Below, one piece after another: positions 18,410 to 54,002 of a stretch of 64,000 nucleotides of DNA. The number at the start of each line of letters is the position of its first letter. The stretch's first letter is position 1. Below the pieces are notes generated by a model. That model saw nothing but the letters and a program-made list of their open reading frames with translations. It did no database searches and was not told where the DNA came from. The stretch is taken from the NCBI RefSeq assembly GCF_988243305.1, contig NZ_OZ547136.1; one strand, 5' to 3'. A program made the position numbers and the translations under genes.

Positions 18410-18536
18410 GCCGGATGCGATGTAAACGCCTTATCCGGCTACATATCAACGACGGTTGTAGGCCTGATAAGACGCGCGAGTGTCGCATCAGGCGTTGATT
18501 GCCGGATGCGGCGTGAACGCCTTATCCGGCCTACGC
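18410..18536. repeat. BIME: cluster of three REP palindromic units
   Basis: Repeated GCCGGATGCG...CGCCTTATCCGGCCTAC-type motifs between convergent cca and uppP. Confidence 0.85.
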
Positions 18537-30987: not shown

Positions 30988-31752
30988 TTACTTTGCGTGC
31001 CAGTAAGCCGCTGCACGTACCCGCTGTGGATCATACTGTTCCGCTTCAAAGCGGCGGCTTAAATTCTTAACGACTTTGCCTTCGCCGGTTATCCAGATGA
31101 AGTAATCATCGGCAGGGATTTGCATCTGCGCCAGACGCGCATCTACTGCCTGCTCATCATGTGCCAGCCATTCGATATTAAAACCATCAAGGTGCGCGAG
31201 ATAATCCTGGCAGGCGTGATCCCGCACGCTAACCAGTGCGCTAACTTGCGGTTTAACAGCAAGTTTGCTCAACGTTTCCAGGCGGCGGCGCAGTGCGGGC
31301 ATTCCGGATTCATCGCAGACATACAGCTGATACGCGTAATCCTCTGGCACCACCAGCGAACCGCGCGGACCTGCCACCGTGAGTTTATCGCCCGGTTGCG
31401 CCTGCATTGCCCAGCTGCTGGCGACGCCACCTTCGTGAATAAAGAAATCAATCGCCAGTTCATGGCGTAGTTCGTCATACAGCGGCGTATAGTCACGCGA
31501 CGGTGGGCGTGGTCCTTCCGGCCAGACGATACCCTCTTCCGTTACCGTTGGCGGCACAAAGTGAGCATCAGATTGAGGAAAGAAGAGTTTGCTGTGATCG
31601 TCAAAGCCGCGCGATGTAAAACCGTCCAGCGCCTCGCCGCCAAGGACAATGCGCTGAAAACCGGCGCTAATACGCTCAACGCGTAGCACAGTCAGTTCAC
31701 GGAAGCGCAGATCATTGCGAACGCGCTGCGGGTAGCGGGGGGAGTTATTCAT
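30988..31752 (-). CDS. yqjH: NADPH-dependent ferric-siderophore reductase (254 aa)
   Basis: Siderophore-interacting FAD-binding protein family; Fur-box-like site in promoter. Confidence 0.85.
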   Translation of the reverse strand: MNNSPRYPQRVRNDLRFRELTVLRVERISAGFQRIVLGGEALDGFTSRGFDDHSKLFFPQSDAHFVPPTVTEEGIVWPEGPRPPSRDYTPLYDELRHELAIDFFIHEGGVASSWAMQAQPGDKLTVAGPRGSLVVPEDYAYQLYVCDESGMPALRRRLETLSKLAVKPQVSALVSVRDHACQDYLAHLDGFNIEWLAHDEQAVDARLAQMQIPADDYFIWITGEGKVVKNLSRRFEAEQYDPQRVRAAAYWHAK

Positions 31753-31804
31753 TGTTATCGCCTTCGTGATAGTAATCAGATATATCTAAATAAATTTCGT
31801 AAAT

Positions 31805-31823
31805 GATAATGATTGTTAATCAT
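31805..31823. promoter_or_regulatory. Candidate Fur box (GATAATGATTGTTAATCAT) in the yqjH promoter
   Basis: Close match to the GATAATGATAATCATTATC consensus; yqjH is known to be Fur-regulated. Confidence 0.6.
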
Positions 31824-31895
31824 GATAAATGCAAGCGATTTGTAGAACTGATATATCTGAGGTATGAGAAGACATTCAACGTCGTAGAAAGGCTA

Positions 31896-31929
31896 GCGGA
31901 TGCGGCGTGAACGCCTTATCCGGCCTACG
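31896..31929. repeat. REP palindromic unit inside the yqjH-yqjI divergent regulatory region
   Basis: GCGGATGCGGCGTGAACGCCTTATCCGGCCTACG. Confidence 0.8.
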
Positions 31930-32028
31930 TGTGAGATGAGTCCACGTTTAAAAATCATTTTTGTACTTGCAGTAATGCTCATATCAGATATAAATTAGAT
32001 ATATCTAATTAAGCAAAAGGAGGCTGAT

Positions 32029-32652
32029 ATGAGCCATCATCACGAAGGGTGTTGTAAACATGAAGGCCAGCCACGCCATGAAGGCTGCTGCAAAGGTGAG
32101 AAGTCAGAACATGAGCACTGCGGACACGGTCACCAGCATGAACACGGTCAATGCTGCAGTGGTCGCCACGGTCGCGGCGGCGGTCGTCGGCAACGTTTCT
32201 TTGGTCACGGTGAATTACGTCTGGTGATTCTGGATATTCTCTCGCGCGATGACAGCCACGGTTACGAGTTGATTAAAGCGATTGAGAATCTAACCCAGGG
32301 GAATTACACCCCAAGCCCGGGCGTCATCTACCCGACGCTGGATTTTCTCCAGGAGCAGTCGCTGATTACCATCCGCGAAGAGGAAGGTGGTAAGAAGCAG
32401 ATTGCGCTGACCGAACAGGGCGCGCAGTGGCTGGAAGAAAACCGCGAACAGGTGGAGATGATCGAAGAACGCATCAAAGCGCGTTGCGTTGGTGCTGCAC
32501 TCCGCCAGAACCCGCAAATGAAGCGGGCACTGGATAATTTTAAAGCGGTGCTGGATTTACGCGTCAACCAGAGCGATATCACTGATGCGCAGATAAAAAA
32601 GATCATTGCGGTGATCGACCGCGCCGCTTTTGATATTACGCAACTGGATTAA
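32029..32652 (+). CDS. yqjI: PadR-family metal-responsive repressor with His/Cys-rich N-terminus (207 aa)
   Basis: N-terminal HHHEGCCKHEG... metal-binding tract followed by PadR-type winged helix. Confidence 0.85.
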   Translation: MSHHHEGCCKHEGQPRHEGCCKGEKSEHEHCGHGHQHEHGQCCSGRHGRGGGRRQRFFGHGELRLVILDILSRDDSHGYELIKAIENLTQGNYTPSPGVIYPTLDFLQEQSLITIREEEGGKKQIALTEQGAQWLEENREQVEMIEERIKARCVGAALRQNPQMKRALDNFKAVLDLRVNQSDITDAQIKKIIAVIDRAAFDITQLD

Positions 32653-32660
32653 TCACCGAT

Positions 32661-32750
32661 TGCCGGATGTGGCGTGCCCTACCCCCCCGTAGGCCTGATA
32701 AGATGCGCCAGCATCGCATCAGGCATTGTGCGCCAACCGCCGGATGCGGC
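32661..32750. repeat. REP/BIME cluster between yqjI and aer
   Basis: Multiple GCCGGATG...GGCCTGATAAG-type palindromic units. Confidence 0.8.
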
Positions 32751-34560: not shown

Positions 34561-49189
<14,629 letters not shown>

Positions 49190-49293
49190 ATCAGCATACT
49201 TGTCCTTAGCCTTCTGCAGTGACAGCTGGTAGTACAGCGTGCTTCTGGCCAGCCCTGCAGCCTTTAACAGGTCAGACTGGCAGTGTCCGCATC

Positions 49294-49815
49294 TCAGGCT
49301 CCGGATGACTTTCGTTTTTTCTCCAGCTCCTGGCGCTTTTTTTCCAGGAGATGCTCCTGCATGGCTTTCAGATATGCATTTTCTGCGCGAAGATAACGCA
49401 GCTCATTCTTCATCTCTTCCGGCGTCATGTTTGCCTCGTTTTCATGGGTATCATCAGAACGGGTCATGCTTTTCTCCTTCCTGCGCCTGATAAAGGCCTC
49501 ATCACCAGATTTGCGGTAGCCTTTTATCCAGTTTTTAACCGTGTTGTGGCTGGGAATGTTAAACCGGGCAGCTACCCGGGGTAGAGACTCAGAATGCCCG
49601 AGAGCATAAAGAACCACGCAAAGTTTATCTTCAGGAGAATAGCTACGCCTGTGTCTGCAATCCAGTGCCCGAGGACCGTGAAGAAGAAAAAGATTAATCC
49701 AGTGTGAGAGGCTGGTGTGAGAAAGTTGAAAGAGTTTTGCCGTAGAAATGATGCCAGCATGACCGGCCAGGTAATGATTTACAGCGGCAAGTTTTACTTC
49801 AAATGAATGTTTCAT
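49294..49815 (-). CDS. IS3-family transposase OrfA (HTH), 173 aa
   Basis: MKHSFEVKLAAVNHYL... with C-terminal leucine-zipper-like region; A-rich runs near the 3' end are candidate -1 frameshift sites. Confidence 0.85.
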   Translation of the reverse strand: MKHSFEVKLAAVNHYLAGHAGIISTAKLFQLSHTSLSHWINLFLLHGPRALDCRHRRSYSPEDKLCVVLYALGHSESLPRVAARFNIPSHNTVKNWIKGYRKSGDEAFIRRRKEKSMTRSDDTHENEANMTPEEMKNELRYLRAENAYLKAMQEHLLEKKRQELEKKRKSSGA

Positions 49816-49986
49816 AAACTGCACCTTCAGATGTCAGATTATGTCCAACATTTGGGGTGCAGTTCACAAGCGTCGTATCCGGCATTTCCAATGGGCGTAT
49901 TCTTTTTGAATCCCATCACAAACCCCGCACTCCCCTTTTCCCTTTTCTCCGGCGACGGCTAAATTAGAACTCATCCGACCACATAA

Positions 49987-52753: not shown

Positions 52754-52845
52754 GGCAGACATTGCCGGATGCGACGCTTGCCGCGTCTTATCCGACCTGG
52801 GGGTAATGTGCTGAACGTAGGCCAGATAAGGCGTTTACGCCTTAT
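52754..52845. repeat. REP/BIME elements between the higB remnant and rlmG
   Basis: GCCGGATGCGACGCTTGCCGCGTCTTATCCG and GGCCAGATAAGGCGTTTACGCCTTATCTGGC. Confidence 0.8.
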
Positions 52846-52865
52846 CTGGCAGGTAGCTGCCAATC

Positions 52866-54002
52866 TTACCGACGACGCCCCAGCTTCACCGCTTTCAGCA
52901 CCACAAATTTATTATTCGTGGCGATGGTGGTGCAGTTGCCGAAAATCTTCTTCAGTTTATGGAAGTAATCCAGGTGACGGTTGGCAACGATATACAGCTC
53001 GCCGTTGATTTTCAGACAGCGGCGGGCGTGGTGGAACATCTCCCAGGCGACGTTATCGGTCAGCGCATGTTGCTGATGAAACGGCGGGTTGCAGAGCACA
53101 GCATTAAAGCGGAAAGGCTCCACGCCGGAGAGCGCGTTGTTGATCATAAACTCGCAGCGATCCAACGCCTCTGGCATGTTGGTTTCAACGTTCAAACGGC
53201 TGGAAGCAACCGCCATCGGCGATTCATCGACAAACACCACTTTCGCCTGCGGGTTTTTATCAAGCAGCGTCAGACCAATAACGCCATTACCACAACCGAG
53301 ATCGACAATCTCACCTTCGAGATTCTCTGGCAGATGCTGCATAAAGAAGCGCGCGCCAATATCCAGCCCGGTGCGGGAGAAGACATTCGCATGGTTGTGG
53401 ATAGTCCAGTCAGTACCTTCCAGTTTCCAGCTAACGGTCTGCGGCGCATCGGCCAGCGGCGGCTCGTTGAAAGTACAGTTAATTAAGCGTGCCTTCTTCC
53501 ATGCCAGCGTGGTGGTGGTAGGGCCGAGCACTTTTTCGAACAGTTCCAGCGTGGAAGTGTGGATGTCACGGGCTTTGGCACCGGCAATAATACGTGTATC
53601 CGGCGTGACCACTTTGCGCAGCGCACGCAGTTGTTGTTCCAGCAACGCCAGTGTTTTCGGTACTTTGATCAGTACCACGCCCGGCTGTTGCGGGTAGTCG
53701 GCGGTGCTGTCGAGAAACTTCACGCTCGACTCATCAATCCCGTTGAGGCGTAAATTCTCGCGCGTCGCCAGTTCGCTGATGTATGAGTCGCCAATGCTGT
53801 ATGGCTTATGTTCCGCCAGCACACAACTTAACGCACCAAAGGCATCATTCAGGATCAACACCGGGCCGCGGATTTCTGTGTCGTCCAACTGTTGCAGCAA
53901 ATATTCATCCGCCGCTTCCCACGCCTGTAGTGGGTTAACGTCATCCGTCGCCGGAAAACGTTGTAGTGTCAGTGAACGGAAACCGTTGTCTAAGTGGCTC
54001 AT
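52866..54002 (-). CDS. rlmG: 23S rRNA (guanine1835-N2)-methyltransferase (378 aa)
   Basis: Tandem class I methyltransferase domains. Confidence 0.9.

Follow-up and report, generated by a model that had tools for sequence, protein, structure and literature searches.

The yqjH (nfeF)–yqjI (nfeR) divergent control region of Escherichia coli: predicted YqjI operators, a Fur-like site and an Escherichia-specific REP unit

The 276-bp spacer that separates yqjH (also known as nfeF, minus strand) from yqjI (also known as nfeR, plus strand), at positions 31753–32028 of the window (the whole 64-kb stretch of Escherichia coli DNA analysed here), is very probably a two-input divergent control region, responding to iron through Fur and to nickel through YqjI/NfeR, with YqjI operators at two palindromic sites (referred to as site I and site II) and a REP unit present as an insertion. 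It is the known E. coli yqjH–yqjI control region, an already published system, and nothing in it is new in kind. Repression by YqjI, the relief of that repression by nickel and the control by Fur come from the literature. What this analysis establishes is the sequence features with their statistics, conservation and positions, while the promoters, the occupancy of each site and any role of the REP are inferred.

Fur with Fe2+ would bind a hexamer array overlapping the core yqjH promoter and so silence yqjH under iron-replete conditions. YqjI, a winged-helix repressor of the PadR type and probably dimeric, would bind palindromic operators built on the 8-bp core GATATATC: at site I, over or just downstream of the yqjH start, it would repress yqjH, and at site II, over the −10 element and start of yqjI, it would repress its own gene. 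Nickel on the His/Cys-rich N-terminal tail of YqjI would lower DNA binding, derepressing both genes, and the REP, together with a decayed second unit, would be an Escherichia-specific insertion in the non-transcribed stretch between the two promoters. Purified YqjI, according to what is said of the work of Wang et al. in 2011, binds inverted repeats in both promoters, with either Ni or Fe lowering the binding.

NfeR represses nfeF and nickel relieves the repression (PMC7981267). Deletion of nfeR in Klebsiella raises nfeF expression 85-fold, and NfeR is linked to virulence in the same organism (PMC7981267). The yqjH–yqjI system is also the subject of Wang et al. 2011 and 2014, going by the titles of these papers as given in reference lists.

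The locus and its flanking genes

The features of the region are collected in Table 1. The spacer has a G+C content of 35.5%, against 52% for the whole window. Pfam domains FAD_binding_9 (3e-37) and SIP (2e-25) are found in the yqjH ORF and PadR (2.5e-15) in the yqjI ORF, which RefSeq names ‘DNA-binding transcriptional repressor NfeR’ and which is preceded by the Shine-Dalgarno sequence AAGGAGG at 32017–32023. The preliminary description, made from the DNA sequence, had taken the stretch for the yqjH–yqjI divergent control region, and the ORFs, the Pfam matches and the RefSeq annotation of both flanking genes bear this out.

By megablast the stretch is found in 5421 of 5426 complete E. coli genomes, with the two genes annotated nfeF (yqjH) and nfeR (yqjI), and the gene order, rpoD, mug, tRNA-Ile, nfeF, nfeR and aer, matches that of K-12. 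Strain ST2747 carries a spacer that is 100% identical, and the window overall is approximately 98.5% identical to that strain. About 3.4 kb of the window, at 46445–49877, is absent from ST2747; this segment holds an IS3-family transposase pair (HTH and rve domains; 48467–49189 and 49294–49824, minus strand) and a 513-aa ORF (46733–48274, plus strand) with no Pfam match.

When species-representative genomes were scanned with the YqjI protein, 32 loci were obtained, and with the loci of K-12 and ST2747 added the comparison covers 33 spacers, drawn from Escherichia, Citrobacter, Enterobacter, Lelliottia, Superficieibacter and Raoultella. The gene for the SIP-type ferric reductase and that for the PadR-type regulator diverge in all 32 loci in which both were found, and one further locus ends at a contig edge. 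Five short blocks are conserved among the 33 spacers while the remainder diverges (Table 1).

Table 1. Features of the yqjH–yqjI control region, in window coordinates, and the blocks conserved among 33 orthologous spacers
Feature	Position	Strand	Description	Basis
yqjH / nfeF	30988–31752	−	gene for NADPH-dependent ferric-chelate (siderophore) reductase, SIP-type	254-aa ORF; RefSeq annotation nfeF
Site I	31778–31787		exact palindrome AGATATATCT; predicted YqjI operator at yqjH promoter	sequence and conservation
Fur-box-like array	31799–31829		GATAAT-type hexamers	consensus matches and conservation
Candidate yqjH promoter, model (a)	31806–31834	−	−35 TTGCAT (31834 to 31829), 17-nt spacer, −10 CATTAT (31811 to 31806)	by eye; conserved TGCAAG block
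Alternative yqjH promoter, model (b)		−	−35 TTAACA (31819 to 31814), 18-nt spacer, −10 ATTTAT (31795 to 31790)	counterpart of K-12 pair
Middle near-palindrome	31849–31858		TGATATATCT, 1 mismatch to AGATATATCT	sequence
Decayed remnant	31862–31895		collinear with second, Z2-type REP unit	alignment with K-12-type alleles
Y-type REP unit	31896–31929	−	minus strand CGTAGGCCGGATAAGGCGTTCACGCCGCATCCGC, GTAG tag	hairpin, copies, conservation
Candidate yqjI promoter	31967–31994	+	−35 TTGCAG (31967–31972), 16-nt spacer, −10 TATAAA (31989–31994)	sequence and K-12 listing
Site II	31986–32008		two tandem 11-bp units, AGATATAAATT then AGATATATCTA; predicted YqjI auto-operator	sequence and conservation
yqjI / nfeR	32029–32652	+	gene for PadR-family repressor with His/Cys-rich N-terminal tail	207-aa ORF, start MSHHHEGCCKHEG
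Conserved block 1			site I; consensus GATATATCtAA, core GATATATC	33/33 spacers
Conserved block 2			Fur core; ATGATAATGATTG	33/33 spacers
Conserved block 3			TGCAAG (TTGCA on minus strand)
Conserved block 4			CTTGCA
Conserved block 5			site II; TtAGATATAaaTTAGATATATC

Predicted YqjI operators at site I and site II

Three copies of a 10-bp palindrome had been noted in the spacer from the outset, and all three are present at, or within one base of, the places first given: exact AGATATATCT lies at site I and again at 31997–32006, in the second 11-bp unit of site II, and a copy with one mismatch lies between them. At site II the palindrome extends to 12 bp, TAGATATATCTA, which is the copy first placed at 31996–32007. 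The dyad symmetry of the two sites, perfect over 10 bp at site I and 12 bp at site II, suits a winged-helix dimer, and a 26-nt similarity surrounds the two exact palindromes, which are 219 bp apart.

Matches to AGATATATCT with at most one mismatch number six in the window against 0.97 expected, with three of the six falling inside the 276-bp spacer, and two or more exact copies appear in none of 5000 dinucleotide shuffles of the spacer. The pentamers GATAT/ATATC occur eight times in the spacer, where 2.2 would be expected (P = 0.002).

Conservation picks out the same two sites. All 33 orthologous spacers, which represent six genera, have the core GATATATC at both; the conserved block at site I reads TCAGATATATCTAAA in the window (31776–31790), and the AGATATA..TTAGATATATC arrangement of site II is kept in nearly all 33 spacers. 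Because GATATATC and the Fur core ATGATAATGATTG are invariant in the 33 spacers, the comparison supports the view that site I and site II are two ancient YqjI operators accompanied by a Fur operator. The palindromes had been put forward as plausible YqjI operators, a proposal that is supported for the two exact copies, which sit at the predicted promoters with a core found in 33/33 spacers, and weakly supported, if at all, for the middle copy, which is not conserved even within E. coli.

Since the block TtAGATATAaaTTAGATATATC is conserved, site II is described as two tandem 11-bp units. It covers the −10 element and the predicted start site of yqjI. Work by Wang et al. from 2014 reportedly found that the footprint at site II exceeds that at site I in length and that full repression needs both sites; the tandem 11-bp structure would explain such an extended footprint. 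Site II is larger still in Enterobacter and Lelliottia (e.g. at 2430–2470 of locus L020), where it consists of three tandem 11-bp units (GAATATATCTT, AGATATAGTTT and AGATATATCAA) with an AGAT-N3-ATCT element alongside, and where the spacer is much shorter, the operators being 97 bp apart.

A perfect 11-bp inverted repeat (GCTCATATCAG at 31977–31987 and CTGATATGAGC at 32024–32034) encloses site II together with the Shine-Dalgarno sequence and takes in the start codon of yqjI, and both of its arms contain a half-site, ATATC or GATAT. The idea that it forms an RNA hairpin masking this start codon was rejected, as the left arm is upstream of the predicted start site and the changes seen in E. albertii are not compensatory.

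It is conceivable that the palindromes are not operators at all and instead belong to AT-rich promoter sequence, with TATAT runs resembling a −10 element, or are bound by a different protein, for instance PepA. Site II does overlap the −10-like TATAAA, and PepA, an aminopeptidase and DNA-binding protein, has the nfeF/nfeR spacer as its sole target across the K-12 genome in genomic SELEX (PMC8249747). However, the 8-bp core is invariant through six genera in two different promoter contexts, site I is not a −10 element under promoter model (a), and shuffling the AT-rich spacer never yields two exact 10-mers; in addition, the neighbouring gene specifies a repressor whose action on both promoters is known (PMC7981267). 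A non-operator origin of the palindromes is highly improbable, and sites I and II are best regarded as predicted YqjI operators.

The middle near-palindrome

The middle copy is variable within E. coli. It reads TGATATGTCT in K-12-type alleles and TGAAACATCT in strain SCPM-O-B-8794, and in other genera only the half-site TGATAT recurs, at a different distance from the −35 block. This copy may be a weak third YqjI site, a half-site or a product of chance, and does not qualify as a conserved operator.

That it is a genuine third YqjI operator, located upstream of the yqjH promoter and helping to bridge sites I and II, appears rather unlikely. It is a single mismatch away from the operator sequence, the chance probability for this copy alone being approximately 0.02 when the spacer is shuffled by dinucleotides, and it pairs with site I as a perfect inverted repeat of 11 nt (TCAGATATATC and GATATATCTGA); Citrobacter, Raoultella and Superficieibacter also have TGATAT half-sites upstream of the TGCAAG block. 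Yet the palindrome is degenerate in the K-12-type alleles and lost in one E. coli strain, and the offset of the half-site from the −35 block shifts by about 5 bp between genera. The studies of YqjI by Wang et al. are said to describe two sites.

Promoters and the Fur-like site

The promoters of both genes were assigned by eye, from conservation and from listings for K-12 (PMC3946193), and are candidates. The spacer is bound in vitro by the sigma-70 holoenzyme, and genomic SELEX of that holoenzyme lists TTGCAA-16-TATAAA for K-12 yqjI (PMC3946193), in line with the yqjI promoter proposed here; the distance from its −35 element to the palindrome is identical in C. gillenii (counted by eye). Two different models fit the yqjH promoter. 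Model (a) draws on the TGCAAG block (TTGCA on the minus strand), which is conserved in all genera, as is the CTTGCA block, and model (b) corresponds to TTAACA-18-TTTTAT, listed for K-12 yqjH (PMC3946193). A consensus scan of the spacer for promoters and terminators called nothing, both promoters being weak matches.

Relative to the yqjH start, site I lies at about +13 to +22 in model (a) and over the start site in model (b). The predicted operators would overlap the core promoter or the start site, as judged on the predicted promoters, neither of which the consensus scan called.

The Fur-like array would overlap the core yqjH promoter in both models, and yqjH is counted as a member of the Fur regulon in secondary papers. 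Its conserved core is AAATGATAATGATTG (31801–31815), with ATGATAATGATTG found in 33 of 33 orthologous spacers. The fit to consensus depends on the form used. Against the 19-bp consensus GATAATGATAATCATTATC, the register 31805–31823, where a Fur-box-like site had first been proposed, scores 12/19 on the plus strand (counted by eye) and 13/19 on the minus strand, the register 31799–31817 scores 14/19, and a scan for the 19-mer with at most three mismatches found no match; such scores are not distinctive alone, as 37 sites in the window reach at least 13/19. The 7-1-7 inverted repeat TGATAATNATTATCA fits better: positions 31804–31818 read TGATAATGATTGTTA, with two mismatches, and there are two such matches in the window against 0.15 expected. 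The Fur-box-like site is upheld by the 7-1-7 form, the conserved core and the literature on the regulon, with only a 12–13/19 match in the register first given.

Fur-repressed iron-uptake promoters of enterobacteria have the same array of GATAAT-like hexamers over the −10 and −35 elements of an iron-acquisition gene. The yqjH promoter differs in its moderate match to the 19-mer (13–14/19) and in having a second, metal-responsive repressor site.

The REP unit

The REP unit that had been described at 31896–31929 is real, as judged from its hairpin, its GTAG tag and its near-identical copies. The element is an imperfect palindrome with predicted folding energies of −19.9 and −18.4 kcal/mol (z = −2.7 on the plus strand and −3.6 on the minus strand), its tag running from 31928 to 31925 on the minus strand; it is extragenic and has many genomic copies, with one near-copy in the window at 18502–18535 (differing at 1 of 34 positions), and a query that includes the REP hits a median of 30 places in an E. 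coli genome. It matches naRNA4, a REP-derived Rfam family, below threshold (29.7 bits against a gathering score of 59.5), the alignment to the model being partial and including part of the second hairpin. The K-12 annotation (NC_000913.3) has no repeat feature in the spacer stretch and so offers no independent annotation of the REP.

The sequence to the left of the Y unit resembles a second, Z2-type REP, which scores 27 in ST131, where the shuffle maximum is 18, and 22 in K-12, a value reached by 1 of 300 shuffles; the counterpart in the window allele is not significant alone. Since K-12-type alleles have this degenerate Z2-type REP next to the Y unit, the element was probably a BIME. A typical BIME (Z2-type and Y-type REP) occurs nearby at 32686–32750, between the convergent yqjI and aer genes, scoring 43.8 bits against naRNA4, again below the gathering score of 59.5. 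A further REP-like hairpin pair is present at 52764–52849, just downstream of a 378-aa ORF on the minus strand (52866–54002, probably rlmG), one of the hairpins having the perfect stem CCAGATAAGGCG...CGCCTTATCTGG.

The REP is present in 13 of 13 Escherichia spacers, which include several E. coli lineages, E. albertii and Escherichia sp. E1V33, and in 0 of 28 from other genera, where AT-rich sequence is found instead. Among the spacers examined the REP is confined to Escherichia and is therefore regarded as an insertion specific to that lineage. The perfect IHF consensus (WATCAANNNNTTR, for example AATCAATTAATTA) is found in 11 of the 33 spacers (loci L007, L011, L012, L014, L016, L031–L034 and others), and in 10 of these 11, from Citrobacter and Raoultella, it has a constant place 64 bp upstream of the site II palindrome. 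An IHF site was discarded for the Escherichia spacers, all of which leave the consensus unmatched and have the REP in that region.

The position of the REP was singled out early on as unusual, rightly so: convergent genes flank approximately 60% of E. coli REPs, tandem genes about 40% and divergent genes only about 1% (bioRxiv 10.64898/2026.03.23.713779). The element in the spacer shares with other E. coli REPs and BIMEs the GTAG-tagged imperfect palindrome, the many near-identical extragenic copies and the pairing of a Y unit with a decayed Z2-type unit, but its flanking genes diverge, so that it is outside the usual 3′ UTR setting between tandem or convergent genes and the usual roles as terminator or in mRNA protection are inapplicable. 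It is located between the two −35 hexamers (31834 and 31967), upstream of the predicted starts of both genes. Of the two effects that had been suggested for it, the one on transcript stability is unlikely because the REP is upstream of both predicted promoters and hence outside both predicted transcripts. If it has a role, this would be exerted at the DNA level, by spacing or bending, by the binding of a protein or by a cruciform.

Spacer alleles and operator spacing

Two spacer alleles that differ in length by 11 bp are found in E. coli, the difference being a linker just left of the Y-REP (CATCATTACTC in K-12, at about 1893–1903 of locus L001) that is missing from the window allele at about 31895/31896. 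Their frequencies were estimated in 59 E. coli chromosomes, evenly spaced down the ranking, with a 336-bp query made of the spacer and 30 bp of coding sequence on each side. All 59 cover the query fully and in one piece, and they fall into length classes of 336/337 bp (19 chromosomes, the window type) and 347/348 bp (40 chromosomes, the K-12 type), so that about one third are short and two thirds long.

The K-12 region (studied by Wang, Wu and Outten in 2011 and by Wang et al. in 2014, J Bacteriol) has the same genes in the same order as the window, with site I, the Fur core, the Y-REP stem, the yqjI −35 and −10 elements and site II identical and a mean column identity of 93%. The window spacer is 276 bp long compared with 287 bp, being 11 bp shorter beside the REP, and its operators are 219 bp apart compared with 230 bp. 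In the window the middle site is nearer to a palindrome (one mismatch rather than two), the second REP unit is more decayed, and a single base at the REP's left foot is different (AGCGGATG in the window and GCCGGATG in K-12).

Operator spacing in Escherichia is 217–231 bp (20.7–22.0 turns), and in the other genera 97, 166, 172–175 and 183–185 bp; insertion of the REP lengthened it from about 97–185 bp to 217–231 bp. A general helical-phase rule between the operators was rejected, since the spacings across genera fall in all phases.

These observations bear on whether the REP/BIME remnant is a functional architectural element, one that binds gyrase, HU or IHF, or extrudes a cruciform under negative supercoiling between the divergent promoters, and that sets spacing and phase for the cooperation of YqjI at sites I and II, the alleles being one turn apart for that reason. 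Reportedly, in the 2014 work of Wang et al., shortening the spacer and mutating the REP disturb yqjH regulation, which counts in its favour. So do the retention of the REP in every Escherichia spacer, the uninterrupted spacers of the 59 sampled chromosomes, the existence of just two main length classes 11 bp apart and the range of Escherichia spacings in helical turns; furthermore, the title of Wang et al. 2014 (cited in PMC7981267) states that the binding sites must communicate. On the other hand, other genera regulate the same gene pair without a REP and with spacings in every helical phase, the left-hand unit and the sequence right of the REP stem drift freely among strains, and REPs are mobile, selfish-type repeats, so that the 11 bp may merely reflect different BIME linkers. 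An architectural function of this kind is possible, if doubtful.

A more specific scenario, in which the REP/BIME inserted between older YqjI operators in Escherichia and was co-opted as an architectural spacer, with the 11-bp (approximately one turn) allele difference leaving both operators facing the same side of the helix so that they could cooperate in repression, possibly through looping, is distinctly unlikely. Were it true, it would be a rare instance in which a promoter region contains a REP with a function at the DNA level.

Relation to other systems and implications

PadR-family repressors, such as PadR of Bacillus subtilis, acting on padC, and LmrR of Lactococcus lactis, acting on lmrCD, are autoregulated and have inverted-repeat operators over the promoters of both regulator and target. 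The yqjH–yqjI region shows the same autoregulation and operator layout, but the core GATATATC is different, the effector of YqjI is a metal on the N-terminal His/Cys tail rather than an organic ligand, and its two distant operators are reported to cooperate.

To the published system this analysis adds the definition of GATATATC as an invariant operator core and of site II as tandem 11-bp units, evidence for a REP that is confined to Escherichia and outside both predicted transcripts, and the 11-bp dimorphism, whose short and long alleles are a natural pair for testing whether operator spacing matters. The promoter pair joins an iron signal (Fur) and a nickel signal (YqjI/NfeR) to control the release of iron from siderophores, a role that is not new.
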